DNA of 64,000 nt from Amoebophrya sp. A120 (lineage: Eukaryota; Protista; Dinoflagellata), in assembly GCA_905178155.1 (NCBI GenBank), contig CAJINV010000004.1, positions 5,992,828-6,056,827 of the forward strand. The letters are read 5' to 3'. A program made the translations under genes and the position numbers. Within the stretch, counting starts at the first letter, position 1. Every line of letters begins with the position of its first letter. Shown piece by piece: positions 36-58,864 of this stretch. Under the pieces are notes generated by a model. The model was not told the origin of the DNA and did not search any database. It saw nothing but the letters and a program-made list of their open reading frames with translations.

Positions 36-3000
36 TCAATACGACCTCTTGAAACTAAGTATGAAACGGAAATCTTCCAAAAGAGGGATTGATTCTAGTA
101 GGTACGCCGCCAGCGTTTTCTCAAAGGCCTGGAAATGTTCGTTGCCCACTGCGAGTTTCGGGAAGCTGGAGGAGACCTTGTCGACCTGCCAGCTGGTGTT
201 TTGTTTCATTTTTGCGATTATGCAATGCAAAAGTATAATTGTATCGTACTAGTATGAATTGCATGACAAATCTTTCATAGAAGAAAAATGAAATTTGTCA
301 TGCAGTTTCAGGTAAGAAAGCAGATCTGTAATGCTAGACTCGCATTAATACGAGTACGATACTTTTTTATTTGCAACGCATAGCGATGTCCACACCGGTT
401 TTGTCCAGCGAAACCGCCAGAGGATCCAGAATCGCTTTCTCCAAGGACTTATCAAGTGCAAATATGTCTGAGTCTGGAAGAATCAAGGCTTGTCATGCTT
501 GTCTGGCATGACCTATGATGCTTGTAATGCATGAGCCAGCATCACAGATTTTTGGAAGGCTTCCTGATGCCATTTCCGCATGACATCAAATGCCCTCCTC
601 GCGTAGCACAAATGTGGCTCCTCTTGATGGTCATGCAATACAGATTTCTTTAGAGTCCAAAGTTAGCATCACAAGTTCCAACTTTCCAGACCCAGACATT
701 TTTGCACTTGATACGACTTCTCGAACGCGGGCAGGCCGTCGAGGTTGCTGGAGATGTCGAACATCTGTTGCCCGCCTGCACCGTTCGCTGCTTGGTTGTT
801 GTGCGAGTTCAAAAGGAGTTCCGCGGCCTGGAACCGGCAGGGGTGGTCCGGCACCTCCAAAATGCGGGTCAAATTCGCACTGATCTGCTGGAGGTTGCGC
901 ATACTCAGGTTCGCTTTCTGCAGGAGCCAGAGCCCGTATTTCGCAAACCGGGGATCGATTAAGAGGGTGGAAACCTAAATTGAAAATCCGATTTGTTTGT
1001 CGACGAACAAGGTCTTTAAGGCTGTGCGTACATCAAAACATCATCGCATACAAAACGCTCACTTCAAAGATAGAGGCCGACAAGTAAGTCAACGAGGCTT
1101 CTAATTCTATTCCCAAGCAATACATACGGATACGCTAACGCTAACGGACGCAAGAACGAAGTGGAAGTTAAATAAAGCATGAAAATGCTGAGGCTCCTCG
1201 CGTCTGTCAAAAATCACTGATTGTATAAATAGTACCCTCCCAAGGCTGGTTTGGTGCGTGCAGAGCGCCGCGGTTAACTTGAGCAAATTTGGGTCGTGGA
1301 GCTGCTCGCCGCCGGTAGTAGTACTCAAACCCGTCGCTTCGGCCCACACCTCTTCCGTCTTCGCCAGCAGTTCGATCGCGCGACTAGCCTCGCAGGCCCC
1401 GGAAATAATTGCGTTGCCCGATAGGATGCAGGCCACAATCTGCGTGTTGCGGTCCGGGGAGCTGAACAGTGCGACGACGAGCCCGAGGCCGGACTCGGAG
1501 AACAGAAACTGCTTCAAGTCGTCCTCCAACGCGAACCAGAAGAGCTTGGCCAGCAGCTCATGCACCACCGCCGGTCTCTGGGGATGGAGCAATTGCAGGA
1601 TGACCTCCCGGGCCTCGATATCCTAACCAAAAACGTCCCCACCGCAGAGTTGTCATGCAGATTTCCATCTACAGAAACATTTGTAATGCGGGTACCCATC
1701 ATGAGAGGTATTTCCATTCGTGTTTTGGAATTTGTAATGCTGGAAACAGGATGAGCAGATGGATTTGTGATGCGTTTGTCCTTACTAACCTGCACTACGC
1801 TACGCACTGCAACCTGTCATGCGTGGCCCCCAAAACGTCTAGATTTGTGTTGCTAAGTGCCCAACTTGACTATGGGGCGGGCACGTTTTTACACAGGATA
1901 CTCGATTAGCGTCGCGGTCATGATCCGGGGAAATTGGTCGCTATGCATTGCAAAAGTATCGCACTAGTATAAATCGCAACACAAATTGGCTCAGCATTAC
2001 AAAGTGAATTTGTAATGCGCATTTGCCCTAAGAAAAAGATTTGTAAATGCATGATCGCAATTAGTACGAGTACGAGGATGCTTTTGCAGTTCATAGTCGC
2101 CACTGTTCAGCAAGATCGCCGACAACAGACCGCGAATAGACCTAGCGAATGCATTGGTTGCGTGCTAGTTGTATCAGCTGTCAATGATCGCTTCACAAAT
2201 TTTTAAAATTCTAATTCTTTATATCAACGGAGAAGCATCAAAACGCAATTTTTCGTCGTGCAGGTGCATGCACTGCTAGTGCTACAGAAACAGCTGGGAA
2301 ATCGGCACTTTGTCATGCTGTATTAAGAACCGATAGTATAAATACGGAAAGTTATCTGGCACGTCCAAGGCCCGGAACAGCCTTTGCAGGAACCCGACCT
2401 TGCCTTGCAACTGCTCCACCACGCTCAATTTGCCCACCTTCACCGCCCCGGTCAGCAACTGCGCGGCCTGCGCCAAGCACTCCGGCGGGTTCCCGTTCAG
2501 AATGTGGTCGGTGCAGATCTGCAGCACCTCGGGGTGGGCCAGCCGGTACACTTCCGTGGCGTACTTTTCGTCGACACACAGCTTCGGTAAGGTTTTGAAC
2601 AGGTTGCTGCGGACAAAGTCCGGCCCGAAGACGAAGCGCGAAACGGACAGGCCGGCGTTTTCGAACTCGAGGAATTTCCAGATGTGCAGCTGCTTTTCCA
2701 GTCGGATCACCTCGCTGTTCAGACAGTACTGGAGAAAAATGCTCAGCTTCGCTTTTCGGTCTTCTACAACCACCGGGTCGGTGCTGTCCATCCCTTTCTG
2801 CGGTAAGACGGGCAGGTTTAGGTCCAGGGGCGTGAGCGCCGCGTGCAGGGTGAAGAAGTCGTTGAACCTGAAATCATGCAAATGCATCTGCAGTTTCTTG
2901 TTGTACAACAGTGTGGATTAAAAACAGAACCAACAGCCTTGAGATGAACGGGTCTAGCGGAAATTTTTCATGGCCATGGGTGTTGTCGCGGAGCACTTAA

Positions 3001-4259
3001 TACCCACACGATTGGTGTTCTTCAGTGCGACCAAATGATCTTCCATTTCCTTACCTGTGGTTCACAATGCGGTCCCGGCCGAAGTCGTGCACCTCTATCA
3101 CGTAGTCTGTGTATTCCTGCAGTAGAAAACTAAGTTTCGTTTCTGTCCGGTTGATCTTCACGTACACTGGGCGACTGGTATCTACCACGACCTCGGGTGG
3201 CTTTGCGTCCGGTAACGCGTTGTAGAGGGTGGTATTACCCGCGTTTATCTGCGAAGGGTCCTCGAACTGCAGTGTGCTGGAGAGCGCGTTTTGCATCAAA
3301 TTCGAAGCGGTGGACGAGAGCACACCCGTTGCCGCTCCAAGAGTGGATGCAGCAGAACTTGTTCCATATGCAATACAAATTTCCCGTACATGTACAAGAT
3401 GCATCACAAATTTCACCAATTTGCATTTGGAGCGTAAAACTTGTCATGCTACACTAGGATCAAAGCCAAGTTTTGTCATGCGGAGACCACATTTGTACCT
3501 GTACGGGAAATTTACTGTGGATATTCCACTTGCAAGTACACTAGCACCCGTAGCTGCAGCCCCCGACCCAGGAAGTAGACCACCTGCTCCTCCAGAGGAA
3601 CTCATCGAGGAAGATCCACCTGCTGCTGATCCTCTGTGCATCTGCTCGCTGGCACTCTGCAGCACCTGGCTAGCCCCCGCGGCTAAGAACTTCGTTGCGC
3701 CCCCCACCAGTGTGCCCGTCAGCGCGCCCGCCTTTTCGGCCATCGCGAGCGCGGCAGTGCGGTTCTGGTGCGGCCCGGCACCCGCGGCGGACCCAGGGAT
3801 TTGGCCACTGTTTGATATTGCAGCTCCTGGCATAGTCATAGGCATTCCACCAACTCCCGCAGAAGTTGTCATGCTGAACTGCCCGGTGGGTTGCAACGGT
3901 GGCGTCGCAGATGATGCTGGAAAAGAGGACAAACCACCACCCGCAGCAGATCCGAAAAAGCTAGTTGTACTGGAGCTGGGTCCTCCTGCTCCTGTCGGAG
4001 TTGGATTCGGATTTGACGCCGGCGCTCCGGCAAGCAAAGGATTAGTTGCACCGGAGGGCTGTTGCCCGGCCATGAGCGGGTTGTGCGACGTCATCAAGGG
4101 GTTGCTCGGAGGGGAGGACAAGGAACTACCTCCAGGTGGAATCCCGCCTCCGGTCAGCGGGTTATTTGAAACAGAAGCAAGCGGCGGCGCATGTTGCGGT
4201 TGTGTGCCAAGCTGGCTAACCGGCACCAAGGAAGGAATTCCGATGTCATCCAGGTCCAT
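36..4259 (-). CDS. PX (phox homology) domain protein with Gly/Ser/Pro-rich N-terminus; multi-exon
   Basis: Spliced PX motif: VYVKINRTE..EYTDYVIEV..NHR|FNDFFTLHAAL..LPVLPQK..EDRKAKLSIFLQ. GT-AG introns at 2868-3054 and 975-1235 plus 5 introners; joins such as AFEKS|LEKAILD..VDIA|KMKQ are in frame. 3' end uncertain. Confidence 0.75.
219..382. mobile_element. Introner, family A
   Basis: TATGCAATGCAA..TTGCAACGCATA; DR gcgat/gcgat; frame restored on removal. Confidence 0.9.
450..713. mobile_element. Introner, family B
   Basis: TATCAAGTGCA..GTCTGGAAG / TTCCAGACCCAGAC..TGCACTTGATA; DR ggact/cgact; frame restored. Confidence 0.9.
975..1235 (-). other. Conventional GT-AG intron
   Basis: Minus strand agg|GTACT...TTTTCAATTTAG|gtt joins LGR to VSTLLIDPRF in frame. 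Confidence 0.7.
1619..1900. mobile_element. Introner, family F
   Basis: TATCCTAACCAAAAACGTCCCCA..GCACGTTTTTACACAGGATA; DR ctcga/ctcga. Confidence 0.85.
1942..2095. mobile_element. Introner, family A
   Basis: TATGCATTGCAAAAG..CTTTTGCAGTTCATA; DR gtcgc/gtcgc. Confidence 0.9.
2868..3054 (-). other. Conventional GT-AG intron in PX domain
   Basis: cacag|GTAAGG...TTTCAG|gttcaac reconstitutes NHRFNDF. Confidence 0.8.
3367..3523. mobile_element. Introner, family E
   Basis: TATGCAATACAAATTTCCCG..CGGGAAATTTACTGTGGATA; DR ttcca/ttcca; joins ASG|TSSAA. Confidence 0.9.
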
Positions 4260-5042: not shown

Positions 5043-6748
5043 CTAGTCCTTCTTCAGTTCGAATTTTGGTTGCTGTACGACCCCGCTTTTGTCAATCGTG
5101 AAAATGTCGCAAGCATCGCCCGTGTAAATGTCGCGTTCGCCAGTCGAAGTCATCACGTCGCGGCCTGAACGAGAGAAAATTTTGGAAAAAATTAAAATTT
5201 ATATTTTTCACTTACGTGGTACTTGGGGACGAGAGGTCTTGTTTCAGGTGCAAGTGAAACTACAGCGTAGTTGTGTGTACGGGATAATCCAGACCTACTG
5301 GACTTTCAGGTGTATCTATAAGCATGGCTAGGTGGATATTGATTTCATCAAAATCCAGCACGGACGAACAATGTTGCATTGATGCAGAATCAGAAAAGCG
5401 TAGTTGTAAATCGCAAAGCGGCGTAGAAGTCGTAGTACAGAGGTCCAGCACTTCTGCGAGCTTGAGTGGCGCTTTCCTCTTCTTGTCCTCGGTGTAATTT
5501 CCCTGCTGTATGACGGCGTCGATTACTGGGTGGGCGAGTGAGCTTCCACTACCCGACGTCGTGTAGCTGGCGTGAAGAAATGATTGAAGCGGTTAAAGCG
5601 AAATACGCAATACAAATTTTCCGTAGTTGTACAACACGTACTGTACAAAATGCATGACAAATTATTCAAGCAAGTAGTTATACTCGACGCGCTCGAAGCT
5701 CCCAATGGCATCGTAGTGGTAGCACGCTCCCTTTCCCTCGCCGTCGGTTCCGGCGAGAATATTGAAGGTGTAGTAGGGAAAAAACCGCTTTCCGTAAAGC
5801 ACCGTGGAAAGCATCTGGGCGATTGCTGTGGTGGATGGCTCCTTCCGATGCTCGTGCTGGTACCTAATAGGAAAAAGACGCGCAAATTTTGGTTTTCCTT
5901 TCGCATTATTTTCTCTTCGATGGATTCGGACGGGTGGTTTTTCTGAACAGAGGACCACGCCTCCAATATGTAGATGAAATCATGCAGAGCAAAATTCATG
6001 CAATTCTGCCGAATAGCAATAGAGACACCGAAATAAACATCAAATCATCGCCCGACTTGGACTTACATTGTAATTCTGATTTTCAGCATTCGGTGCAACG
6101 TGATCGCATCTGCTTTCATTCCACAGCTCGTAATCACGCACTTCGATGTCAGTTGGGTCGTCTGTATTTTTTTTTGTTTTCGATGAAAGAAAGTTATGTT
6201 GAGAGGTGGGTCATTGTTGAGGTGATAATTGCATTCGAAACTGAAACTACACGAAGTTGTTCCACCATTTTTTGAGTACATCGTGGTCTCCTCCTCCTCG
6301 CAACATGCAACGACAACATGAGAAAATTTTGTTGAAGAAACCTTGGTATTATTTCTCGTGTGTATCGAGTATCCCTTGGAAAGTCGCTTATCGGAAATGA
6401 TGACGGCACCGTATCAAATGCAAAAGCGTCTGGGTCTGGAAGCATGTAACTTGTAATGCTAGTCCTCCACTCCTGTGAAATCTGTACTGCATGACTAAGA
6501 AAAAAAAGACGCCCTCTTTGGTCAAGCAAAAGCGCAGTTTCTCATGCGGACTGAGCAAGAGAGAGCGTTCTGAAAACTTGTCATGCTTGGTTGCATTGGC
6601 AAATATTTGAGTCATCCAGAGTTCTGCATCACAAGTTTCCAGACCCAGACATTTTTGCAGTTGATACACCGTCTTCGCACGCAATGCCAACTGCCGTCCC
6701 ACCATTGTCAGTGTATGGCGAAAACCGGTGCTCGATGGGTTGCGCCAT
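5043..6748 (-). CDS. PSMB1: Proteasome subunit beta type-1 (beta6/PRE7); multi-exon
   Basis: [86 protein letters not shown] follows the beta6 family throughout. Confidence 0.95.
6412..6666. mobile_element. Introner, family B, in proteasome gene
   Basis: TATCAAATGC..GCAGTTGATA; DR caccg/caccg; removal gives CEDG|AVIISDKR. Confidence 0.92.
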
Positions 6749-8322
6749 TTTCAGTGGAATTGTTTCTACTACGACTGCTAGTATTCTTCTATGAGAAAGA
6801 GTAAATGTTGTACACTTCTAGTACTTTGAAATTTGGGAAACTATCTCCCGCTTCGCCGCACTGAAGAAACTACAGAGCCATGAAGTTTTTGTTTTCTTTT
6901 TGTGTCGCGGAAAAATAAATTACAGCTTACATTGACATAAAAACGTAGGAGAGTTGTGTCGCTGGTGGCATCGTGGTACATGATCGTTTGTATGCAACAG
7001 AAGCAATGGAATTCAAGTGTGAGAGTGAGTACTGCTATTGCTTCTAGGACATCAATAGAAGCAACAAGAATCAATATCTTCAGTTCGTTCTTTTCCTTAG
7101 CGATGAGGCAAGAATGAATGTGCTGTCGCATCGTCCACATGGACTATCACAGCAAAATGAGTGGGATTGCCGGCAGTCGCGCCAAGTTCTACTTGCGAAA
7201 GGTTTTGATCTTGGAAGCAGGATGGATGTAACGCCAGTGGATGGGCGTATTGAAGTTGTTGAACGGTCGCGCCTCTTGCGCTGGCTTGCGACATTTCCTT
7301 TTCCTTCCTGATGTAGGGATGGAAATGGAATACTTAGCACAACTTACGACTGAGCTTGTTTCTGTTGAGCTTCAACATTGAACAGTTGGAACATCGACGC
7401 GAAAATCCTTTGACTGTGTGCTTGCTAATAGGCAAAAAATCTTTATAGTCGGAGCCTCGGTCTTCCACGTTATTATACAGTGTTTTAGTTTTTTGTTTGT
7501 ATGTTGCCGCCCCTTCTGTTGTTTAGTCGGACTTATGTACAGGCTCAGAAGGAGTCACAAAATAAATTGTTATAGCTGCTAAAGGAAGCTACTAATCATT
7601 CAGCGCAAACAAGTATGGTCGTGTAGCCGTCATTTTCGTCTTGTCTCTGCATGTGTACATTGATTTTGGCGAAACGACCGCACTTCCTGCTCTTCGTGTA
7701 CAGTTAATTCGAAAGTTTTTTTTCTAGCCAATCGTTCATGATATTACGGTGCGCAAGATATTGTCGTTCATACTGGTGGAATAAAGAAGTTTTGAGTTTT
7801 AGTATTATCTCATCAATAGCATGTTGGATTCTATTAAATTCATAGTACGATCCGCGTAGCATTCAGATGAAACAATAGAGAAACTTTATAAAGTGGACAA
7901 GCGTCGCTACATAAAGGGAAGAACGGGACAAATTATGGGGAGCGCTAAATGCTGATGAGCTTTTCAAGGTCAGCGTCGAAGCCACCGCCAGTCAAGTCAT
8001 ACATAAAAATTGCGTGGAAGGAAGTCTGAAGTTCTGTCCTGCTGTTCACTGAGTTCTATCCTGGAAAACGATGAAATCCAATACGAGTAGTTTCATAAGT
8101 CAAAAAAGTCATTGCAGCATTACTAGCTGCAGTGTCGAGTGTCACTTCGAAAGTTGTTCATATCATGTGTGATTCTTATCTATCATTCATCTTGCATATT
8201 TTTAGCGTTATTAATAGCACCAGCATGTTGTCGACACAACAAAAGTTAAGAAATGGTTTTCTGCAGTGGCGCTTCTCCTACATCACACCTCGCACCATTA
8301 CCATTTTCAACATCATGGCCTC

Positions 8323-11300
8323 CTACACCTCCACTACCTCATCCTCTCCGCTGAAAAGGGACGGCGAGGTGGAAGTACTATGTTCCGCAGTTCTACTACT
8401 CAAGCGGTCCAACTGCGATCTCCGTAGCAGGTCATTGGTCGTCGTTCCCTCCTCAGGCATCACTTCGTCGATAATATGCTCCTCGACCTCGAACTCGTAG
8501 CCCACCGCGGGAGGGACGGAAAAATTATCCTCCAAGTCGTCATCGTAGTGTCCCTGGTCGTCGCGGTCCGGAACTTCACTAAATGAAGATCCAGGACGAG
8601 GACTCGTCACAACATCCACATCGTCAACCTCAACATCTTCCGCATGATCATGAAGGTGTTGATTGCTGTTCCTCCTGTTGTTCATCGTAGCCGCCGGACC
8701 AGGACTACTTCTTCTATCATATGGCACGGAATTTTTCATCATGTAATAAGACGTGCCACCATGATCGTGTGCAGCATGTTCACTCGGATCTCCGAGTAGC
8801 AGCAAGCGGTGCATCTCTTCCTCGGCTTTTTCATCCCCATACGAGCGGAAGAATTCCCAACGGGACCTGCTCGCCTCGTCGGCTTGGTCCAGCAGTTTTT
8901 TCCGCCGCCCATACTCGGCTTCGTAGAAGTTCTGTTCTGGCTTGCGGTCTTGTTCTTCACGACTGGCGTTCTGGTTCTTGTGTCGTCCAACTGTTGTCGT
9001 CCCGTCAGCTTCGCCCCTGTCGTGGTCCTTTTCCTGCTTCTTATTTTCCTTCCTCGTGTGCGCTTCGATTTTTCCTCGAAACAGAGTCACGATGTGGGGC
9101 ATATGGAAGCGTCAGGTTTGAAATCGTCAAAGTTGAAGTAATCTGTAATGCATAAAATGCATGACCCGAGGTACGTGTGTTGCAGAGCAGGCAAGTGAGG
9201 CCGATTGTAAGCCTGTTTGGGGTTACAGCTCGAGCTGCTAAAGTAGCATGAGAAAATGACTCTTCTTTGCCTAAACAGCATGACAAACTGGATTTAGGGA
9301 CCACCGAGATTTGTCATGCGCCACTTGGAAACTGGGTTCCAACTGGCATCCATTTTATGCATGACAAATTATTTCAACTTTGTCGATTTCAACTCTGACA
9401 CATCCATAGGGCAACCAGCGCTCGTACACGTGTTTCGCGCCGAGGTGCAGCATATCAAATGCAAACATGTCTGGGTCTGGAAGAGTCATGCTGCTTTTGC
9501 ATGACACAGAAGGTCTGGGTCTGGGTCATGGAAGCTCTAGCGTCACAGGTTTCGAGAGGCTTCCGCAATGCCGAAACCGCGTGAGAAATGCGCCACTTTG
9601 GTGACAGAAACTAGTGGCAGTGGGCAGCTTTTGCCGCCTATGCATGAAAGATTTTTCTGTGTTGTGAAATGCGCAGCACAAGTTTGCATTCTTCCAGACC
9701 CAGACATATTTGCAATGTATACAGCACCGACCACCGCTCGCGCTGGTTTTGTCCCGCGGCGCTCTGGGCGCGCTGCAGTTTCGCCTTCGTGGCAGCGTCG
9801 TGGAGGTGGCGTGTGGATGCAGTGGCTTTGCCTGTGTCCTCTTTTCCGAGAAGTTATTACAGTGAAAAATGCCCCCACCCCCAAAGTTGCAATAATTTGT
9901 GATGCGAAGTCTCCAAATAAAAACTTTTATTTTGTCATGCGTGAAAGGAATATGAATCTTTGTGATGCAGAGTCTGGGCGTATATAGCATTGCTTGCATG
10001 ACAAGCGCCGATTTTGCTGGGATCTTTTGCAATACAAATTGTCGCTATTGTTCATCACGATTGGAAATCTGTGATGCTGCTAGATGCAAGAGGGCGAATG
10101 TTTCTCTTGGAAAGGTTTGCAATACAAATGCTCCCAAGTTCGGCGGTGGGGGCATTTTTCATTGTAATAGAAGTAGCTTTTTGTCTTCGCGGGAGAGCAC
10201 CCAGTCCTCTTCCTCGGGGGTCAGCGTCTTCCATGTGGAAAGAAAGTCGATAACGTCGTCCGGGCTGTCGGCCGCTGCTACGTCCACCGCCAGGGCGGCA
10301 GGGAAGTGCAGTGCGCGTTCGATCAGATGCACTAACCGCTGCTCGATGACGCGGCTGGGCAGCCCGTCGAGCGAGAATAACAGCGACGAGGCCGTCGAAC
10401 TGTGGCCAACATCTGCTTCGCTCTCGTCGCCGTAGTTGGGGGCCGAAGGGCCCGCGTTATTTCTGTAGTTTTTGTTCTTCCACAAGTTCTTTCGTAGAAA
10501 GGGTTTATTCCTGCTAGGACGATGAATTTCTTTCAGCTCTGCTTCCGCAAGCCCCCAGGTTATGTCATCGTCGGTAACCATCGGGGAGAGCCGGTGCCAG
10601 GTCCCAGAGCGCACCCGCTTCAGCGTCGCCAGCTCCTCCTGGCGCCGCTCCCACAGGCCCGTCGTCACGTGCTCCCACTGAAACGCGTTGGCTGCGGACT
10701 GCACGTAACGCAGGTAGGCCCCGAGCGGCGTGTAGTCGTGCAAAGCCACCACCGAATTGCGCAGCAGGGACAGAAGGGATATCGCCGCGAAGTCCTTGCC
10801 CGTTACGTGCGAGATGGAAGAGGAGAGCTTTGCGTATATTTCAAGTGGTCGTTTTTTATTCGTCCCGAACGTGCTCTCCTCTTGCTTCAGCAAAAAATCC
10901 AGCCGGTCATGCATCACCTTTACGTAGGCACCGATCACGGAGTGCGGGCCGGCGTCCGCGAAGTTGTGGTGCAGAAAGTTCGACAGCTCCAGTGTTTTCT
11001 TCTTCGCGGCAGCTTTGCGAGCTTCGGCTCTTGCTCTTCTTGCAGCAGCAGCATCAGCTCGGTTATCCACTACAGTAAATTTCCCGCACTTGTTGATGTA
11101 CAAAAAGCATCACAAATTTTGCCAACTTAGTAGAGCATGCCACTTGTCACGCTATCTAGGATGGAAGGCAAGCTTTGTCATGCAGAGACCGCATTTGTAT
11201 GTCTATGTCGTGTGCGGAAAATTTACTGTGGATATCTGTTCCTCCTCTTGTACTCGGTAGCGTTCCTGTTCAGCAAAATCGCTTTTGTGGATATCCTCTC

Positions 11301-14300
11301 TTCTTGCAAAAATGCTGCGTTCTTTATGCTCTTCATTTCCTCGTGCTGATGATCTTCCACATCGTTCTCGTTTTTTTTGTTCTTCTTCTTCTTGCTTCTC
11401 GCAACAATCCTGTATCGCTGTCCGTCGTCGCCAACAAACGAGGTATGGGTGTGTCAGGATCGAAATCGTCAAAGTTGAAATAATTTGCCATGCATAAAAT
11501 GGACGCCAGTTGCCACTCAGTTTCCAAATGGCGCATGACAAATTTCGGTGGTCCCTAAATCCCGTTTGTCATGCTGTTTAGGCAAAGAAGAATGGTTTTC
11601 TACATGCTACTTTAGCAGCTCGAGCTGTGAACCCAAATAGGCTTACAATCGGCCTCACTTGCCTGCTCTGCAACACACGTACCGCGGGTCATGCATTTTA
11701 TGCATTTGCAAATTATTATTATTTCAACTTTGACGATTTCAAACCTGACGCTTCCATACGAGGGCTCCTCCTCGTAGTGCTTCACTCCACCATACGCAAT
11801 GCGAAACCACGCCACCCACATCAACGCCAGTGCGACATTGTGCTTGGTGGCCCGCTATGCAATGCAAATATATCTGGGTCTGGAAGGTTGGAACTTGAAC
11901 TTGTAATGCTAGCTTTCCATACCTAGGAAATCTGTATTGTATAACCTACAACAGTCGCTGCAGCCTCTTTTGTACAATGAAAGCACGCAGTTTCTGATGC
12001 GGATTGCCTATGAGAAAGCGATCTGGAAAGTTGTCATGCTAGGTTGCATTCGGAACTGTTTCCATCATCCACATTTTAGCATCACAAGTTTCCAGACCCA
12101 GACGTATTTGCATTTGTGATACCCGCAAGATGCTGTACTTTGTCTCCACACACCCGTCGTCGCTGTGCGCCAGCGCTATGCTGTGCAAAAGTACTCGTAT
12201 TGCAATCATGTATTACAAATATCTTTCTTGAGCTAAATCCGCATCACAAATTTCATTTCTCATGCTGAGTAACTTTGTAATGCATTTCTACGAGTACGAG
12301 TACGATACTTTTGCAATGCATAAGCGCGGTGTGGTCCCGAAACGGGGCGGCCCGGCTGCAGTCCGGGACGTGAATCTGGGTGTAGGACTCCTTCCCAGCG
12401 ACGTCCAGAGTCTGAAGTGAGTGGCCCGCTCGCGCATCCATCTCCTCGGCCCGTCGTCCCGCCGCGGAGAGCTGCTGTGTTGAAGACAGATCGCGGCGGT
12501 AATTCAGGTCGAAAGGGTTCATGTGCCTTTTCATCAGAAACGAGGGGTACCTCGACGAGAATTTTCTATTGTGATGTTGCACGTCCGCTACTTTTTTCCG
12601 CACAACATACCGCACCAGGTGGTCCAACAAGTGTGCGCACCAGGGGGGCACGTGGCCGAGCGACGCTTCGTAGGGGGCCTTGCGCCACAGCAGGTGCGGA
12701 AAGTGCTCGCAGCCCAGCTTCCGTTCGATCACCCAGGAGGGAAAGCCCCGCCAGTGCGTGGCGGGGTTATGGAAGCGTCAGGTTTGAAATCGTCAAAGTT
12801 GAAATACTTTGTAATGCATAAAATGCGACACAAGAAGTGACTCTATTGCATAGGACCCACGGGAGGCAGATTATAGTCCTGTCAAGGGTCAAAAGTTGGA
12901 CTGCTAACTAGCATGACAGAAGGCAGCTCTTTTACCCTAAACCGCATGACAGACTCGCTTCCAGGACCGGGAAAATTTGTCATGCACCGACTACAAACTG
13001 TAGGTCTAACTGGTATCCGTTTTATGCATGGCAAATTATTTCAACTTTGTCGATTTCAACTCTGACACATCCATAGGGGTCCCCTTCGCGGTAAACCTGC
13101 AGCACATCGCCCTTTTTCACGTAGAGTTTGTGGCAGACTTCCCGCTGCCGGGTCGCGGCCTTCGTCCCAAGTACCTGGCGCAGGACCTTCGCGGAGGTGG
13201 AGGCACCGTCAAACAAGTAGAAGGGGTCGTGCCGGTATCCACAGAAAAAAAACCAATGCAAGCCACATCCATTTTTTGCATGGCAAACACATGACTTGAT
13301 ACGTGTTTTGCATGACAAATTGGATGTGGATGGGTTTTTTTCTGTGGATAGCCGGTTCCGGTACTCCTCTGCACCAACGGCCGCCTTCTCCGCTTCGCTG
13401 GCAAGCCAGGTGGCCTTTCTTCGGACCAAACGCCAACCGCCCTGGAAGGCGTGTTGCGTGGCTGCCCAGGACTTGTGAAGCCAATCCTCGTCTTGGTCTT
13501 TATTGTTCCCCCCGCCGGCGCCCTCCTCGGTGTTGTTCTTTCTGTCCCGCTCGGCCTTTTCCCTGCGCGCGATGCGGTCTATGCGGTGCGCGATGGCGAT
13601 GTATTTGGCCAGTTGGTGGCAGTGCTCTACCAGGTGCACCCCCTCCTGCCAGTCGCGGTATTCCAGGCTCCATCGCCCCACGACCTCGGGCCGCAGCATG
13701 GGTTCAATCATGGTCACCCAGACCTCGCGCGCCCACACCTCGGTCACACCCAAGTAGGCCAGGGTGAATTGGACCGAGCCACCGGTCCCGTCGGGAGACA
13801 GCCCCGCCTCGGGGTTCCGCACGGTGGGCAAAACGACCGTGGCGACCGCCCCCGTCCCGCTGTTTTGCGCAGCCTGCAACGACTGTGCGAGCGCGACGAG
13901 CCCGCTCGGCACTCGCTCAATCTTATTCCGCTTCTTCGCGTCGTAAGAAGCTTCTTCTTGGGAGGACTTCTGGTCCTCGGACTTGTAGTAGCGGTCGTGG
14001 TCGTGCAGGCGGCCGAAAACAGGTTGTTTTTCCAAGGGCAGGTCGTAGTCCTCCTCTTCGTCTAGCCGGAAGTCGTCGTTTTCTTTCCCGGCCGCAACCA
14101 GGCCCGGTTTGCCGCGGTCCAGGCCGTTGGTCGCGAGCCGTCCCTATCAAATGTAAAAATGTCTGGGTCTGGAAGAATGCAACTTGTCATGCTGAATCTG
14201 GAGCATGCAAAAATCTGTGTTGCATGATTACCAAAAGATGTCCACTTTTGACCAGTTCGACAGGGAGTTTCTCATGCAGGATAGGCACGATAGACACCTC

Positions 14301-17300
14301 ACAGCGTTTGTCATGCTAGGTGCTGCATTCCAGGCCTCATGGGTCATGGAAAAACTGCATCACAAATCTTGCATTCTTCCAGACCCAGACACTTTTGCAT
14401 TTGATAGTCCCGAGGGCGTGGGGTGCACGAAGTAGCCGGCGACTATCCAGGAAAAAACACCCATCCCCATCCATTTTTTGCATGGCAAATAGTTGACTTT
14501 ATGCATGTTTTGCATGACAAATTGGATGGGGATGAGTGTTTTTTTCCTGGATAGCGATGTCTTGCAGGAAAACGTCCTCCGAGGCCGTGCCCCACATCGC
14601 GCAGTCCCGGTAAAACTCTTCCGTTTGCGCATCGTGTTCGCGTTCCCCGGGCTCGCCAGATGTTGAACCGCTTGTCTGCGGCCCGCCACCGGGTGCTGTT
14701 GCATCCTGGCTGTAGTCCTGCCAATTCAGTGTGGGAAAGTCCTTTTCCATGGAGCACGACTGAGGGAGTAGACCTATGGACTGCAAAAGTATCGTACTCG
14801 TATAAATGCATTACAAATTTCATCAGCATGAGAAATAGAATTTGTAGTGCAGATTTACCTTAAGAGAAAAATTTGTAATGCATGATTGCAATACAAGTAC
14901 GATACTTTTGCACAGGATAAGACCCGCGGCGCGCCAAATCCAGTCGCCCAGGTCCATTGTGAAGCGGGGAACCGTATCAAATGTAAAAATGTCTGGGTCT
15001 GGAAGAATGCAACTTGTGATGCTGCATTTGGATTCCAAAAAAATCTGTATTGCATGAGTACCAAAGGGAATGCAATTTTTGCTCCGCTGAGAAGGCATTT
15101 TTCATGCGGAAAAGGCATCAGGAAACCCTCAGTAGAAAATCTGTATTGCTAGGATATGCATCACAGACATCATGGCTCATGCAAAACGTGCATGACAAGT
15201 GTCAGAATCTTCCAGACCCAGACACTTTTACATTTGATAAACCGCAAACGCCAAAATTCGCGGCAGCCCGCGCCGCATCAGGGGGTACAAACCAAGGTAA
15301 TCGACGTGCTCCGCCGAGTAGACGCGATTCCAGAGGGGCTGCAGCTCTTTGCGCAGGGGCTCCGTCTCCTGCCCCGCCAGAACGTCCTGCTCCAAAAGGC
15401 GGCCCAGCGAACCGTGCGTGAGCGGAAGCTTGGCCCCGACCGCGGGGCTGGACCGTACCTGGTAGGAAGAAAATCTATTACTTTCGCCGTCAATGTTGTT
15501 CTGTTCCGGACTAACCTCTTGCTCTTGATCTTCACTATCGGAAATAACGTCATCGTCGTGGTCTTTCTCTTTGCCCTGCTTGTCCTGCTTCATTTTTTTC
15601 GAGTCGAGTCGTGGCACCGCTTTTCCTGCGTGCGTGGTCAGCTGCTCGTACACATTTGATTTGGTCCATACGGGTTCTCCGCTTTGCAACCCGGGAACGA
15701 CATCCGTGCCTTCGAGCAGACCCCGCACGTACGTTTCTTTGCGGGTCGGGGCATAGTCGTGATGTGCTGGAGGACCTCTTCCCATTGATGTAGGTTCAAG
15801 CGCAACCACGACTATCCACAGTAAATCTAATTTCCCGCTGCACACGGGCAAATTCTGTGGCTTCCACATGTTGACAAGCACAAGCTCTTCCTTGAACCTC
15901 TCCAGCATGACCAATTGCTTTTTCTAAGTTGTTGAAATTTCAATTTGCATTTTTGTACATGTGCGGGAAATTTGTATTGCATATGATCTGTCATCGACGT
16001 CACCTCCTGCTGCAATTGCGCGCCAAAATTGGTGCGCTCGTGTTCGCTTTCCACGAGGGAGTCGACTCCGCGGCGAAAGGCGTCGAAGTAGCCCCCGCTG
16101 TACGCGGCTGTCGGCTTATGGTCCACATCCGCAACTTTGCTGAAGTAGAACCACCCGTCCTTGGCGCGGTCTTCTGGCCCCAGCATGCGCTCCCGGCGGA
16201 GACTCGCGCGGGCCATGACCTGCGCGATAGAAAGCCCCTTTTCCCACGGGGCAAATTCGTCGACATCTTCGCCGTAAAAAGTCTCGGGGTCCAGCATACC
16301 CTTCACTTTGTAAATATGGTCTGTCATTCCAAGAAGGGTTGCTCGGTCCTCGTAGTTGTGATCGACTGGTGATGAACCAAAATTTGCCTTCGTTCTAGTA
16401 CTAGTACTCACCTTCGCAGTACTTCTTCTAGTTGCACTTGATGTTGCAGCTGCCCTTACGACCCTGCTGCTGCTCTCGCTCTCCATAAAGGACGTCGAGC
16501 TGCTCGCCTCACTTGTACTTCTAGAGGTCGAAGTTGTGCTAGCCGTGGGCGCAGCGCCGTTCTGGTCATAAAGCTGTTGCAGTGGTCTCTGGAATTCCGC
16601 GTCGGCCTTTCGGTACCGAGCTACGCTCGCGTCGACATCGACCACATGGCTGCCCGGGGTACTGACCGGCGTGCCGTAATACAGGGGCGTAAACTCCAGC
16701 TCCTCGGCCCGATCGGGGATGCGGTCCGAACGCCCCAGTCGGTGCAGCTGGTGCGCGCCCCGGGCCGCGTCGGTGTATGCATTGCAAAAGCATCGCAGTC
16801 GCACTACTCGCATGAATTGCATCACAAATTTTGTCTTCAAACAATTTGTCATGCTAGTTTAGGTAGAAGGTTGGATTTGTCATGCACGAATGCATTTACT
16901 TTTGCAGAGGATACGGTGCGCGCAGCGACGATGGGGAAGGGCAGCCCCCCGGCGGGAAAGCGGACGCCGAACATGCCAGTGTCCCGGGTCCGGTCCACCG
17001 CACTCGGGTATCGTACGAAAAAAGTGTTTCACTGTGATTGATTTGCAAGATCTGCATCACAAGTTTGTTACATGACACAGAAAATTTGCCATGCGCGCTT
17101 CCCAAGGGAAAACACGGCTGAAGCTCCAACGTCTTGCAGGTGTAGCAAGACAAATAGTTCTGTGTTCCATTTTCTGCATCACAAGTTCACAGGAAACAGT
17201 TTTTTCGTGCNNNNNNNNNNNNNNNNNNNNNNNNNNNNNNNNNNNNNNNNNNNNNNNNNNNNNNNNNNNNNNNNNNNNNNNNNNNNNNNNNNNNNNNNNN

Positions 17301-20300: not shown

Positions 20301-23300
20301 CGAGGGCACCACGCCCGGGTATATACGCAAGGTTTGACCCCAATCAGGGTGCTGCGATGGATTTTTCTGGGCCTCAGCGCGTACCGTTCTGGAACTTTTT
20401 GTCATGCATGAAAGGAGTATGAATCTTTCTGATGCAGATTCTAGGCGTGTTTCGCATCGCTTGCATGACAGACGCCGCTCTTGCTGGGATCTTTTGCAAT
20501 GCAAATTTTTGCTATTCACGATCGGAAATCTGTGATGCTGGTAGATGCAAGAGGGCGAATGTTTCATTGATTTGAAAAGGTCTGCAATACAAATGCTTTC
20601 AAGTTCGGGGGTGGGGGCATTTTTCATTGTAATAGACCGTCTGACTCCACAGCAACCGGTGAATCCCCTGGTCCACCGAGGTCGGGTTGACCCCGGCGTA
20701 CAGAAAGTACTCACTCCCGCCCGTTCGCGCCAAATAGGCCCGCTCGGAAACAAGCAACTTCTCCGCCTCGATGCTACTCGCGTCACGACCCGAAACTACT
20801 CCGTTCTGGTCCTCCTGCTGCGCCAGCTCTTCTTCACGGCTCATCTTTACGTTGGCAAACTTGCTGGAGGCACCTCCGCCCCCGGTCGGGCTGTCCGCAA
20901 ACTCGGGGTGATACACCTGCAGGAGCGGTCGCACGATGGTGCCGCCCTCCTCGAGAACCGTGGTGGTGGAACCCGCGAAGGTGGGGTCAGTCGCGACGGC
21001 TTGGTTCAACTCCCGCGCAATCTCCTTCCAATTGGTGTTCACACGATAGTATCCTGTGCAAAAGTATCGTACTCGTACTAATTGCTTTTATGCATTACAA
21101 ATCTTTTTCTGAAGGCAAATCCGCATTACAAATTTTTTTTTGTAATGCTGAGCTAATTTGTGTTGCAATTTATACTAGCACGGTGCTTTTGCACAGGATA
21201 GATAGCGCACGTGATACTCGCCGCCACGGGAGGAGGCTCCAGCCTGCGCCGCAAAAAGCTTCAGTAGGGATCCGGCCTCCTTTTGCGCTAGGTCGGCGTC
21301 GGCCTGCAGTCGCCTGGCCGTCTTCAGCCACGCCGCGCGCTCCTGCTCCACGTTGCGGCCCCCTAGCAGCTCCTGCGATTCGGTATCTTCCTCCACATCA
21401 AAGTCGCTTACCTGGTAGTAGTACCTCTTTGATGTATCGCTTGATGAAGGTGATGTACTTTCGTCTAGCCCTAGCAATTCCTGCTCTTGGTCTGATGTTT
21501 CAGAAGAAGTTCCGTCACCAGGATTTGATAATGATGATCTCGTCGCTGTTGTGCCCATGCCCTTTCGTCTACTACTAGAAGTCTCTTTCACAAGGGAGTA
21601 GTCCAGCTCTGCGGCATCGCGGTGCCACCGCTCTCGGATCTTGAAGCCCAGATACAGCACGTTGTGCAAGTAGAGCCTTTCCCCGCTGGTCGAGATCGTG
21701 TCTAATTCGATCGCAAATGGATCTTCGTCCCCGTCTTCATCAAACAAGGTCGTGGTCCCGTCTTCTTGCGCTTGATATCCGAAATTGGTGGCCTCATCTT
21801 CATCTTCGATCGGTCGTACGGCTCCACTGCGGGGGCCCTTGCTTGAAGATGTTGTTGCGAAGGGGCCGGAGTCGTCGGATTTCTTATTCGTTCCCATTTT
21901 TCCGTACAACACGGGCAGCAAAGTCCACGCTGAGGCGCCCGCGGAACTTATGTACTCGGGCCACTTCACGGCGGTGCACCATTCGTTACTGCGACCGCGA
22001 CACGACGTGATGTCCTCGTCCGGAAGGTTTTTAAAGGCTTTTTGCAGCTCTTCATCGCGTTCGTCTACTTCGGCCCCCTGGTTCTTGTGGATGTCATAAT
22101 TCTGCAGCTCGGCGACCAGTTCTTGCAGCTCAAGGTTTATCCGCTGCTGCTCTTCGCTGAAATACCTGGCCTCGCCCTTGGTAAACCAGTTCCAATTTTT
22201 CGTCCTGGAATTATACAAGGGACGGCCAGGCCCAGAATAAACCTTCTCCTTGCCGTCCCGCATGGCTTGGAGCTTCCTTCGGGTTTCCGCCTCCTCCCGT
22301 TTTTGCGCTTCGTTTGTAACTGCGGTCCACGCGCGCAGAAACCCCAGGCTGCTGATCGACGCTCGGAGGCCGCCCCCGGCCAACGCGATACCCGCCGGAA
22401 GCTGGTGCCACGGCTCGGTAAACCGCCCGGCGTAGTTTTCCAGCGCCTCGGGAAACTTGCGCCAATTCACGGCAAGAAACTTGCGCGCAGGAGCAGTTCG
22501 TGCTGGCGCTGGGGGTTCTTTGCTTGATATTCTTGTAGTTGCCTCTCCTTTTTTCGTTGCTTTCGTCGTCCCAACTTTACTTTCTGTCGTGGTCGTCGCG
22601 CTTGAAGATGAAGTTGAAGACGCAAGCGTCGCTTTCGTTGTTTCAGATTTTTTGGCGTAGAAGTTGCGGTTGCTCTCGTGTCGGTCAGCACCCCCTACTA
22701 TTCCGGCCTTTATTTCATTTTCAACGCGATCGCGAGCGGTGATTTCATCAGCCTTTTATAGAGACGAAAAAGGTGATCTTCAGCAGTGTTCTTATCCCTA
22801 AAGGAATTCGCAGCATACCGTCGGGATTTGCCCTGTTTTTGGCGCCAACGCAGGCGCTGCAGCTTTTATGGTCGCGCCTGCGTAGGAGTGCTGTTGCCTT
22901 CCCTGGTGGGTTTGTTTTTTCACGCGGCCCAGGCGTCTTTCTAGAGGAACCAACAGGCACGCTAGCACCCCGGCGAGCCTAGACATAGACTAAAGAGGCC
23001 CCCCCCACTGCGCAGATCGACGCGCCCCGCGGGCACTCACAACACACCCACCCGGCTCAGGCGGGCATCTTTTCCGCGGCCCCGAGCCCGACGCACTCGC
23101 GACCCAAAAAAGGCCGCAAGCCGGCTCGCGCAGACTTGGTGCGCAGGCCCCTCGAGACCTCTTGGAACTCTTCAAGCGCGCCCCCATCTCTCACCCGCCG
23201 CCCCAATCACTCACCGTTGGCACCGGACCGCTTTCGCGGCCGTGGTGAACGCACTGGCAGAAGACCCGAAAAGCTTCCCGCCTGATGTTCGTTTAAACGC

Positions 23301-26300
23301 TCAAAAAAGATAGATAAGAACGCCTACTGCAACGACCTGTGATTGATGTTCCCGCTCTCGAAGACTGCTGCTCTTATCCTCCACGCCGTGCATAGATAAG
23401 AGCACGTTTGTAACGACCAGAAATTGGTGGCTGGCACGAAGCAGAATGACATCTTCTGCGCCAGATGTTCCCGCTCTCGCAAAAATGCTGTTCTTATCCT
23501 CCAAATGGGGCATCAGCTCGCGCCCAGGCGCGCGAACTTGGACGCAGTGGCCGGCGGTTATTCTGTCAGCGCGCAGCGCGTTCCCTGGCGCATGCGCTGG
23601 GGCTGCGCTAAGCACGAAAGCGCGACCCTCTGGAGGATGCGCGGCGAAGGCTTTGGATAGCCCTGGGCGGTCTCGCTTTTGTTGGCCTCAGACACGCCAG
23701 GCCTCGCCTAGAATGAAAAAAACTCACGAATCGCGACGGTATGGCGCGATTTCTCTTAGGGATAAGAACACGCGGGAAGATCACCTTTTTCATCTCTATA
23801 CCTTTATTTCATTTTCAACGCGATCGCGAGCGGTGATTTCATCAGCATTATCACCAACAACTCGTCCGTTGTAGTTGTGGTAGTTGCGGCGGTACCAGGG
23901 CGTACTCAGTACGGCAGGAATGGAGTGGTACATGCGGTACTGCAACTGAGGATTGTAGCAGTAGTGCAAGGCCGAGGCCTGAAAACGCACGTGCGCGGGC
24001 GGGTGGTCGGGGATCGCGCTCGAACCCAGCTTGGAGGTCACCAAATCCGCATACGCCAAAGCAGCCTCGCTGTCTTGCCGGGACACCGAGACATACTTCC
24101 CGGTGGTGGACATATCAAATGTAAAAATGTCCGGGTCTGGAAGAATCCGAAATTTGTTATGCTGTTTTTGCATGACACAGAATGTCTGTCATGGAAGCCC
24201 TAGCATCACAGATTTTCAGAGGCCTTCATGATGCCTATTTCGCATGACAAATGCCCTCGACGCGTAGCACAAACCGGACTCCCCTTGCTGGTCATGCAAT
24301 ACAGAATTTTTTAGAGTCCAAAGTTAGCATCACAAGTTCCAACCTTCCAGACCCAGACATTTTTACATTTGATAGGACATGGGATCCCGCAAAAATTGCG
24401 TCAGGTGGTGGTCACTGTTCGGAATGTCCTCCACGTCATACTTCATTGGGCCAGTCTTGCTGGTCGCAGTCGGGTCGTAAGGATAAAAGCCACTTCTAGT
24501 TCTACCTCGTTCTAGCTTAGGCTCACTATCTCTACTCTGAAGCACGACATCATCGTCCGGCACAGATGAGGAAGTTGACGGGGTCGTCGTGTGGTCTTCC
24601 TCTACTAGCGCACGTCGTTCTTCTCCCACGAGGCCCCGCCCAACAAGCTGCGACGACAGGCTCTGGCGGGCAACCTCGTGCTCTTCCAGGTCCTCGACGG
24701 TGTCTGGGTACCGCACCGCGTACACCTCGTTGAACCGGTTTTCCATCGCGGACCGGGCGATCGTCTTGCAGTAACACTGCATCATGTCAGCCCCGTCGCT
24801 CTCGTCGGATCCCGGCGGCCAGGCGGCCATCAGCGTCCCCACCCAGGCGGCACTCATGCTGTACACCGTTCCGTGGTGGCAGGGGTTCTGGCCCTCTTCC
24901 TCGTGCTGCTCCAGGTAGTCAAACGGCTCCCCGATGGCCGCCGGCGTTCCCAGGCTGTGTGCGGCTTGCCGCTTCTCCAGGATCTTCGCAATGCTCAGCC
25001 GCTCCTGTACAACATCTTCGGGTACTTCGGATGCTACTCTTGATGACTTCTGGCCGTTTGGACCTTGTATTTCATCGACTTGGTCTTGTTCTGTAGACCA
25101 CGGCATTAGCCACACCTTTCCCGGCAATCGCAGTTCGCCCGGGCGCGTCAGAAACAGCCCAGCAGGGTCGTTCATTTTTCTCGTTGTACTCGTCGCAGCT
25201 CCTCGACCGGGGTCCACCACAAAGATTTCGCCGAATAGCGTGCTTAGACTAGGCATCGCTTTCAGCATCTGGTGGTTGGACGCAGGAGCGGGGCCGTTCC
25301 ATCCTGTGCGCTGAATGGCCTCTTGCGCGTTCGGCGTGGTTTTTGTGTCTTTCCAGCCTCGGGGCGCGACGAAGTAGGCGAGCTCGCGCCCGTAGGTCTG
25401 GATGACGAACCCCCCATAGGGCTCTGCGTCGGACCGCAGCTCGTGGCCGGGCGTCAGCGTGTCATACACGGTCTTGTCGAGCAACTTCGCGCGGCAGTCG
25501 TGATACAGCTCGCACCACCCGGTGTGGTCCCAAAAATTTAAAAAGTTGCAACCCTTCCGCAATCTCTTCGCGTATTTCATCTTGCTGGTCTTCCCTTCGA
25601 CGATATTGTTCTCGGTGTTCTTCATCTTCTCGTCAGTCTCCGTGGCAGCCACTGTACTAGGAACGTACACGTCCACGTCGGATGCGGTGACGGCCTCGAG
25701 GGTCGTGAACTTTTGTGTCCGATCTAAATCCGTCACGTAGTTCTCCACCAGTTCATTTGCTGAGGTCGACGTAGAGGCACTAAATCCATCAAGACCTTCG
25801 TGAACATCTTCATGTGCTGCAGCTGGAGGATCAGCCTTACGTAGTTGACCGACGTCAATATCATCTTCCCTGCTGCTCCGGTTTGTTTTCATCCTTTTCC
25901 CCCCCGCCCCCTTCGCCAGCAGTGCAGCGGGTTCCAAATAGTCCGCCTCGTCGCCGGCCTGCAGACAACGCCGCTTGCATTCTTCCAGGTCTTTCGCGGT
26001 GGAGGCAGCTGCGGTTTCAATGGTGCCCCACGCGGTGCTTCCCGTCACCGAATGCACCACCCCCTGGGACCAGCGCTTGACCCCGTCCCACATGTCTCCC
26101 TCGGGCACGTACATGTCCACTTTGTCGCACCGCGCGGGCCCCTCGGACAGAAAGGCCATGACAGGGTGCACCACCACCTCGTACCTCTCCGCAAGCTCGG
26201 GGTCGTTCTCGGTCGGATAAGGAGATGAAGGGGGTTTATGATCTTGCCGATCCTCTTCATTCTTGTCCACATCTTGTTTTCTTTTGGTGTCCTCTCCTGT

Positions 26301-49990: not shown

Positions 49991-50452
49991 GATTCGCGCC
50001 GTCCTTCGCGGTCTTTCCCCGCCGGCACAGCGTCGATTTCGGGCACCGCGGCAAACCGGCGCACATTTTGGAAGATTTTGGAACGCACTCGAGTGCAGGG
50101 CATCGCGGCAAACCGGCGCGCATTCTCTCGATTCTCAAGGCCTCGGGTGGTTGTGCGGACGCCTCCTGTTTCTGTGTGGTTGTCGCATCTCGATCCTGCT
50201 GCTGGTTGTCAACGCGCCGCTTTGACAACCAGCAACACGCTGACAACTTGGAAGAACCAAGCCGAAACAAGAAATGTGCGCCGGTTTGCCGGTGCCGGTG
50301 CCCGTGCCCACCGCCAACGCGGCAAGGGCAAGGACCCCTAAGGCGGGAGCCTCTGGCGCAAGGGCGCACCCGCCCCGGGCTGGCCGGGTGTCCGTCGGGG
50401 AGGGAGTGAAACCCCGCGACGCCGGCGCAGTCCGAGGGGCAAGCACGAATAT

Positions 50453-51205: not shown

Positions 51206-51469
51206 AAAAAACAAGAGAAATCGAAATCACGATGCTATGAGTATTTATTTTTCGTCATTCTAAACACAAGAAAACCACGCTGCCGTCGTGTTTCGCTGGT
51301 TTGGGTCTCAGAGCGTCAGGGTCTCTATTTTTTTCCGCTTGCCAATGTGGTTTAGTCGCAAGGACAGTGGACCAATAACGAAACTCACAGCCAATGCTTG
51401 ATCTGTAGTTCTCGCTCGGCTCGCAGAGCGGACAAGAGGAAAAGGAATAAAGCTCTTGCATGTACTTGT

Positions 51470-57100: not shown

Positions 57101-58864
57101 CCGTGCTTTCATCCACACAAACCTCGGGCAAGGAGCGCACCACGCACTCGGAACGTGCAAAGCTTTTCCGCCGCGCAGGAAGGTGCGTCCAGGCCTTTCC
57201 GCCACTCTGTATGGCTCGCCGAAATTCCGCGACGCCCGGGCCCTGCACGCCCGTAAACGGGGTGTGGTCGAAACAGTCGCCGGAGGTCTGCAAAAGCCTG
57301 GCGACTTGACGCTGCAACGATAGCCTCCCCTGGCGGTGGTGCTCGTCCTGGTCGTCCGACGGGGTTGAGGATGGCGGGTTGAGCGCGTTGGCGTTTCCAT
57401 TTTCTATGCATTGCAAACATGTCAATAGTTGGGTCTGGAAATCTTGTGTGTTGCAGTGCCGGCACGTCATCAATTGAAGAGAAATATTAACAACGGCTTG
57501 GGCTTGTGCAACGGCATGACATCAACAGCATCAGAAGTTTTTTGTTTCCTCAGCTTCTACTTTCGGGTTCATTCGTAAATAGCAAGAAAAAATACCTGCT
57601 TCCAGCAGCGCGGCAGAGAAACTCGACACTCGTACCGAGTTTTCCATGGATACTCGACACACACTCAATTTCAAACCCTCCAGACACTACATTTGCAATG
57701 CATATTCTCGCGCAGTACTTCATCATCATGATTCTCTCCGCCGACAGCGAGGACGCACGCAGTTTTCTGCAACACCTCGAAGACTTCGCACGTGGTCATG
57801 GTCGGCGCCTTTTTTGCAGCAGGACCCTGCGCAAAACTGCGCTCTTCGTCAATCGCTTCCCGTAAAAACTCGCCGCACTGGATATCACAATGAAAAGTGC
57901 CCCGCTCATGGTCATGATGACAGTTAGAATAAGTGTGTCTGATCCAAGAAAGTCACTTCCGAAGGGAACGAAGGCTTTGCTCTTCCTTGTATGAGAAGAC
58001 CACTATGAGTTTGTCTGATCATCTGCATCTTCCAGCAGAGTCTGGCTAGGGTTCTTGCATAGGCATAGCGTCTTATCATGCTATTGCATGAAAAGGGCGT
58101 TAGTTTTCAATTATATCATACTGGAAGAACTCATAGGCAGCAGCCCGGGACTGGTCACTTGGCGGCACCGGAGTAGTACCATCACTCGTAGTTCCTCCTC
58201 CCGACTTTCGGAAGAAAGAATCGAAAGCATTGGTGAAGAAGCTGATGGTCTCGGGCATGTCGCGACAGGCACAGTGTGTGTGTGCAGAAATAGAAATCGT
58301 CGAGAGCGTCGCCCTCGGCGCCTGGTGGTCCTGTGGAGGTTCTCCATGACCCCCTCGTCCTCCCGGTCGCAGGTCGGTTTCTTGGCTTTGCTCGAGGAGG
58401 AGCTCGTAGCGGTTCCTGCGTCCCGCAAAAATCTCCCGGTGGAAGTAGTCGTAACCATGACGGTGGATATCATCGTCATCCTGGAGTAGAGCAGATCCGT
58501 CGTGGGCCTCTCCTTCGCTATCCAAGTGGAAAACAGTGGTCGACGTCGTGTTCTCTGCGTCGTGGTCTTCATCTGTAACTGTATGTTCATCGTCGACCCT
58601 CCTTATAATCTCCTTCTGGTCGTAGTTGTAGTACTCGTAAGTATTGTATCGCACCCCGCCCTCGCGCAGCATGTACTCAGTCATGTTTTGGTGTTGCGGC
58701 AAGAGCCACGCTCCGAGGATCCGGCTCATGCGCTCCACTTTGCGAAACATCCACGGGGACGACGAGGTAGTTGCCAGGAGAGTATCTCCACCGCCCTGGG
58801 CCGCGGGAGGATGAACCGCTGCGGCTGTCGCGGCCCCTTCTGCGAAGAACAACATCTTGATCAT
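54162..58864 (-). CDS. Glycosyltransferase family 61 (DUF563)-like protein; multi-exon
   Basis: ENMWHAVH and SIRMQHRIVQNSLLIGPHGQALSWLPF..VIELMP resemble the GT61 N..H and G.HGA.L..VIEL.P motifs. Confidence 0.65.
55136..55251. mobile_element. Introner, family H (DR diverged)
   Basis: TATACAAAAAAAAAGACCC..GGGTCTTTTTTTGTGGATA; element+5 removal is in frame. Confidence 0.8.
56180..56499. mobile_element. Introner, family G (opposite orientation to 37198)
   Basis: CCCCCTCCCCATAT TIR; DR cagac/cagac. Confidence 0.88.
57405..57704. mobile_element. Diverged family B-like introner
   Basis: TATGCATTGCAAA / TTTGCAATGCATA; DR ttttc/ttctc. Confidence 0.75.
57883..58120. mobile_element. Diverged family D-like introner
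   Basis: TATCACAATGAAAAGTGCCC..TTTTCAATTATATCATA; DR ctgga/ctgga. Confidence 0.72.

Follow-up and report, generated by a model that had tools for sequence, protein, structure and literature searches.

Introners of the dinoflagellate Amoebophrya sp. A120 were described by Farhat et al. (2021; PMC7789003) as elements that start with TAT, continue with variable bases and a run of A, and are flanked by direct repeats of 3-5 bp, given as 5 bp in the legend to Fig. S19. That work also described hairpin ends, non-canonical splicing and lengths near 240 nt; its text reports no transposase in A120 and argues against mobilisation by one. Gozashti et al. (2025; PMC12130899) tabulate A120 families as DNA elements with terminal inverted repeats (TIRs), and list family 38 (~808 bp) as Ginger-like, with a 5-bp target-site duplication, TA/TA termini and integrase-like homology. 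In hAT elements (Hermes, Ac, Tol2 and Tag1), short subterminal repeats in both orientations lie inside the TIRs, extend 100-200 bp inward and are bound by a separate DNA-binding domain (PMC10368747). Tn7 TnsB, an integrase-type enzyme, acts on arrays of weakly conserved sites whose spacing is relevant to transposition (PMC9308760). Ginger1 and Ginger2/Tdd elements are likewise integrase-related and have TIRs; TDD-4 and TDD-5 make 5-bp duplications (PMC2836005).

We analyzed a 64,000-bp stretch of A120 DNA (the window), and found that its elements match the introners of PMC7789003 in ends, duplications and sizes. Family lengths in the window and in the metagenome loci described below (L001-L147), near 110, 150, 210, 260, 280 and 310-320 bp, form a rough 50-bp ladder; the A120 table of PMC12130899, with lengths near 106, 149, 209, 255, 278 and 305-320 bp, resembles them and shows the same ladder. 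In contrast to family 38, for which the table gives no internal motif, the short elements here are noncoding. The hAT repeats are 4-mers without fixed three-turn spacing (PMC10368747), whereas an 8-12-bp site fills the present intron-elements. Tn7 is bacterial, with 22-bp sites in one direction per end (PMC9308760), and Ginger elements have TGTNR termini and mostly 4-bp duplications with target preference (PMC2836005), whereas the present ends are TAT and their duplications show no preference; by termini, assignment to Ginger was rejected. The text and supplement text of PMC7789003 define A120 introners by terminal inverted-repeat and direct-repeat motifs only and mention no internal motif or spacing. 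Rows 1-41 of the 58 A120 rows in PMC12130899 do not describe an internal module either, and a literature search with the literal motif returned unrelated matches only. The introners are already known; the internal module is new relative to the literature searched, as far as these sources extend.

The sequence-only reading had named five 8-mer sites in the introner at 450..713 (Table 1). All five are present, TGTCATGC at 491, TGTAATGC at 523, GCATCACA at 539 and 666, and GCATGACA at 578, and a profile scan adds a sixth, degenerate site at 635. The motif is TGTVATGC, with T at the middle position in 1 of 109 matches within elements, and its extended consensus is AAA(T/C)(T/C)TGT(C/G/A)ATGC(A/T). 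Its resemblance to the animal Sox-Oct composite site was set aside as coincidence. A minus-strand frame of 166 codons appears once 450..713 is excised together with 5 bp and is absent when the element is retained, as would fit splicing of this copy.

Table 1. Coordinates of features in the window.
Feature	Position	Strand	Remarks
264-bp TAT...ATA introner, family 0	450..713		recognized by ends and duplication; within minus-strand exon
5-bp target duplication, left copy	445..449		one mismatch to right copy
5-bp target duplication, right copy	714..718
Left TIR	450..480	+	TAT followed by five free bases, a GCAAA-type block and an inner part specific to the family; from per-position rates
Right TIR	683..713	-	pairs with left TIR in predicted RNA fold
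Two-site same-direction module	491..530	+	sites at 491 (42 bp from left tip) and 523, spaced 32 bp
Inverted motif site	539..546	-	16 bp beyond site 523
Inverted strict match, weak flanks	578..585	-	profile score <7
Mirror module, right end	635..673	-	sites at 635 and 666, 31 bp apart
Family 4 copy	1619..1900		missing from transcript-like contig (gap arithmetic)
Family 7 copy	3367..3523		left tip is a motif site; next site 31 bp away
Nine elements, six families, both orientations	9102..13350	-	missing from one transcript-like contig, each together with exactly 5 further bases
1,044-bp TAT...ATA element	22757..23800		perfect 5-bp duplication, no motif site; removal gives 1,697-codon frame
Old element, decayed TIR	57883..58120		no strong motif site; in restorable 1,108-codon frame

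The 64-kb window contains 115 motif matches, against 8.39 +/- 2.75 in 100 shuffles (shuffle maximum 15). We called an initial set of elements (n = 36; 8,642 bp) from TAT...ATA ends, an inverted repeat and a 5-bp duplication only, and 92 of the 115 matches fall within it. A further 11 full and 4 partial elements were added by hand from end scores, a step not fully blind because the list of 23 outside matches was already known; this set holds 109 matches in 11,689 bp (9.33/kb), compared with 6 in the remaining 48,967 bp (0.12/kb) and none in two large inserts. The claim that the motif is rare outside elements is thereby confirmed, and a motif-blind k-mer count independently ranks identical words at the top. 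A strict match is present in 40 of the 47 full elements; 30 of the 47 have a perfect 5-bp duplication and 17 have at least one mismatch. Three of the six strict outside matches lie in probable relics judged by eye, at 2142-2345, 5600-5680 and 53169-53610 (a canonical intron, a family-7-end-like stretch and a decayed element).

Additional copies came from one metagenome scan that yielded at least 147 loci, all from a single assembly, and the statistics below rest on these and the window. Among the loci listed we identified 292 distinct elements; the same caller found none in 388,664 bp of shuffled sequence. Together with the 47 from the window they make 339 elements, which group into 10 multi-copy families and 28 singletons. 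Their end profile (72 ends) is TAT, variable bases and then an A run, and it is the duplications of the 292 listed elements that lack any base preference. Since family 0 was ascertained by the search pattern, contrasts with the TIR are limited to families 1-6; tip positions 1-15 were ascertained by the element caller, less so in copies retrieved by their interiors.

Elements in the window are almost exclusively exonic, which suggests targeting or strong selection. Long ORF-poor stretches carry no called elements (for example 6750-8300, 27200-28500, 41900-44300 and 47700-51250), and the region 48900-51250 holds two satellite arrays, with 114-bp and ~19-bp units and no motif. Genes in the window are nearly all on the minus strand, like the co-oriented blocks described for Amoebophrya. 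Two clear family members, at 15813-15983 and 55136-55251, have mismatched flanking 5-mers (4 and 5 mismatches), and the flanks of the second appear inverted rather than direct. At 18110-20634, a family 6 copy is split by a 2.2-kb insert (~18187-20386, containing an assembly gap) that has inverted ends of its own and no strict motif; excising the whole unit gives a frame of 1,811 codons.

We examined motif spacing in 38 units, the 10 family consensuses and 28 singletons, with 5,000 permutations. Same-direction pairs 31-33 bp apart occur 25 times, compared with a null mean of 3.0 (maximum 11), and the best 3-bp spacing window in any permutation reached 13. At profile scores >10 such a pair is found in 16 of the 38 units and 8 of the 10 families, and at >9 in all 10 families; within families the spacing is maintained. 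Two sites in the same direction, set 31-33 bp or three helical turns apart, make up the basic unit, a ~40-bp module. Inverted pairs are modestly enriched at 15-16 bp (5 vs 1.1, p 0.006) and also at 47-48 bp, pointing to an alternating 16-bp lattice. Sites that point inward cluster 33-35, 43-44 and ~54 bp from the tips with a period of 10.7 bp (Z 8.9; 99% null 7.9), a phasing that follows in part from the 31-33-bp pairing; outward-pointing sites show none (Z 3.7). The element tip itself forms the second module site in families 1 and 7. Tip and motif coincide as sites only in part, since tip positions 4-6, the counterparts of the best-conserved motif letters, vary freely in most families.

Spacers between sites are also somewhat alike between families (0.358 vs 0.271), and short cross-family blastn matches center on the modules. 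Modules may therefore share descent or pass between families as blocks, which makes the 38 units less than fully independent. Such likeness, together with the TG/CA-rich composition of the motif, would also be expected if it were a functionless relic of shared ancestry or of a mutation bias such as CpG decay, an explanation we consider highly improbable. In trees of families 0-6, the seven core letters changed at 0.039 per cell on terminal branches, compared with 0.088 for other interior columns and 0.083 for the middle letter, so that conserved letters flank a free one. Core letters of each base type are 2.4-3 times slower than their neighbors, and the difference persists after correction for context: in families 1-6, relative core rates are 0.42 on terminal and 0.33 on internal branches, and those of the middle letter 0.93 and 1.17. 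Hypermutability is not seen at CpG positions (relative rate 0.95-1.15). The branch rates contradict the relic explanation, and the possibility raised at the outset, that motif positions diverge as fast as neighboring bases, did not hold.

The sequence-only reading had offered two readings of the motif, a cis-code bound by a common trans factor and a supply of internal stems for the RNA fold. That the motif and its complement form RNA or ssDNA stems, or that RNA-level readers take it as a splicing-factor or branch site, is very unlikely in our view. Predicted folds do pair cores with cores at 0.6-0.9 in most of the 10 family consensuses, the element at 450..713 folds far better than its shuffles (z -8.77), and the inverted pairs at 15-16 bp would suit stems. 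Against this, we detected no compensatory change at paired positions in the 14 inverted site pairs tested, where complementarity of the middle base is not above expectation (e.g. 45 vs 43.5, 42 vs 76.5). The prevailing spacing is same-direction, and in family 4, whose consensus has three modules and six strong sites all in one direction, predicted core-core pairing falls to 0.24/0.00. Family 4 is also the exception to the earlier statement that the motif runs in both orientations throughout the families. Outside families 0 and 3, left and right TIRs covary little or not at all, which does not decide for or against selection on the hairpin. We read the predicted motif-motif pairing as a by-product of inverted sites.

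Orientation relative to the host frame was assigned by an ORF-length rule that left 170 of the 339 elements without assignment. Sense and antisense insertions number 42 and 33 in family 0 (75 of 168 assignable), 17 and 11 in family 1, and 5 and 7 in family 2; in family 4 they number 4 and 4 (8 of 14 assignable). Copies missing from transcript-like contigs (below) bear the motif on either strand, which also counts against a signal read in RNA. The branch-site reading was rejected on this ground and because, measured against the branch-site consensus, the base that would make the best branch site is the one that the motif excludes. These findings largely refute an RNA-level role. Three-turn spacing, a free central letter and indifference to orientation point to a protein on double-stranded DNA. 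On this sequence evidence, and taking mobilization and host or dual roles together, the motif is quite probably a double-stranded-DNA protein-binding module; the proposed common trans factor is supported by the constrained core with its free middle and narrows to a putative DNA-binding one.

Evidence on splicing comes from two transcript-like contigs of run X3, which we classed as RNA by guess. The two contigs skip five stretches that correspond to 12 elements, each missing as the element plus 5 bp. Three gaps (906, 918 and 433 bases) equal the exact element-plus-5 sums for nine elements; in the other two, 204 and 187 bases are left over, and each remainder fits one CT..AC interval, as if introns were also missing. 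With the elements excised, 7516-17008 carries a 1,768-codon frame, compared with 373 codons unspliced. If run X3 is RNA, these 12 elements are removed from mRNA without GT-AG ends. Of the runs listed as containing the stretch none is recorded as RNA, and two 2026 RNA runs contribute 3 and 2 reads on it.

The motif had also been proposed as the real recognition signal, one that persists in copies whose TIRs and direct repeats have decayed. Sites do remain in old copies, and their density falls from 24/kb in 32 family copies to 7.1/kb in 15 singletons (0.24-0.41/kb outside elements, by profile), with 3 of the 15 old singletons in the window lacking a strong internal site. The 1,044-bp element at 22757..23800 carries a TIR of 72 bp and a 9-mer of its own, which occurs six times in the element and nowhere else in the window; in this single case the copies begin ~33 bp from each tip. 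The host exon around its insertion site contains a 45-nt tandem duplication. We infer from the restored frame that it is spliced. This element and the three singletons without a strong site lie in restorable frames of 1,697, 1,108, 152 and 134 codons, from which their splicing is likewise deduced, and as a recognition signal for splicing the motif is correspondingly weakened. Decay in old copies and the motif-less 1,044-bp element indicate that the motif is probably not required for splicing.

We judge it somewhat likely, by analogy with known transposons, that the motif is the double-stranded-DNA site of the complex that mobilizes TAT...ATA introners, and the best reading is that it would work like hAT and Tn7 subterminal sites. 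hAT elements generate 8-bp duplications; Tn7 generates 5-bp duplications and has TGT termini, where the present elements have TAT. A transposase or dedicated partner would load onto the modules along one helix face, with about 33-35, 43-44 or 54 bp between the tip and the first bound site. The loaded complex would pair and cut the TAT ends, much as hAT transposases employ subterminal repeats and Tn7 TnsB employs spaced end sites. One enzyme common to the families would explain a shared motif despite differing inner TIRs, and intron removal would depend chiefly on the TAT/ATA ends and the hairpin that the termini form. Core and inner TIR are equally constrained (0.33 vs 0.31, families 1-6) on internal branches, which represent lineages with continued transposition. 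Insertion in both orientations, the module-tip link in families 1 and 7, the loss of sites in old copies, the alternative 9-mer of the motif-less element, and the 5-bp duplication, TA termini and integrase-like homology published for family 38 are also consistent with mobilization. Sites that span the whole element, beyond its end regions, count against it, as do the merely partial match of tip and motif, the lack of tip phasing among outward-pointing sites and the possible shared descent of modules.

Terminal branches give a different picture. Here the core is more constrained than the inner TIR (0.42 vs 0.65; bootstrap 0.35-0.49 vs 0.59-0.79), and columns without internal change give 0.037 for the core, 0.072 for the inner TIR and 0.088 for other columns. 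If terminal branches mainly record the time after insertion, a role in transposition alone would not predict this pattern. This leaves room for a host DNA-binding or chromatin protein that binds the modules and marks elements co-transcriptionally for an unusual splicing machinery; code-bearing elements would be tolerated in exons and hence spread, and the same protein could aid transposition. We hold this alternative to be doubtful. In its favor, the motif is common to families with unrelated inner TIRs, orientation-free splicing demands an orientation-free signal, and PMC7789003 reports neither U1 snRNA nor transposase in A120. A set of 215 copies was retrieved through element interiors; the core is better kept in 113 of them and the inner TIR in 79, with 23 ties. 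The gap is clear in families 1, 4, 5 and 6, but it is small (0.065 vs 0.079), and family 2 shows the opposite, as does the most diverged third (0.115 vs 0.094). Restorable frames around elements without a strong site also weigh against a host signal. Because terminal branches contain unsampled rounds of transposition, the rates cannot decide between a transposition and a host role. It is rather unlikely that a host protein recognizes a code with three-turn phasing in the DNA of thousands of unrelated introners and thereby permits their removal from RNA without GT-AG ends or U1, with the code also recruiting the mobilizing enzyme.

No transposase turned up in the sources that we searched, which weighs against mobilization. 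Among 25 window ORFs compared with Pfam, one scored above the cut-off, an aldo-keto reductase, and none is a transposase. The two long candidates in the metagenome loci (L018:505-1608 and L068:10001-11031) yielded no coding long element; the first, which was inspected more closely, consists of a family-9-like end and GC repeats, with no transposase-like ORF by eye. Four viral scans and one prokaryote-genome scan returned no transposase or coding parent, and TIR patterns had no matches in viral contigs, prokaryote genomes or fetched loci. A paired-motif pattern retrieved 109 viral loci, of which the 12 with at least 4 motif matches showed no TAT...ATA elements; inspection, for two of them by positions only, revealed coding repeats and unrelated arrays. 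In viral contigs L176 (1187-1535) and L236 (94-335), direct TGTGATGC repeats flank an apparent tRNA-end attachment core; these may be integrase arm sites and resemble the present motif without being related to it. A parent of the Ginger-like family 38 type would be the most likely.

For introners that move and are spliced without GT-AG ends, PMC7789003 found neither a transposase nor a U1 snRNA in A120, and the families were previously said to have only short ends in common. A shared, phased and conserved module would imply that these families answer to one protein, and the 40-bp module would provide both bait for that protein and a signature for the autonomous parent. Should that protein prove to be a host factor, the module would represent a new mode of intron definition, written in double-stranded DNA.
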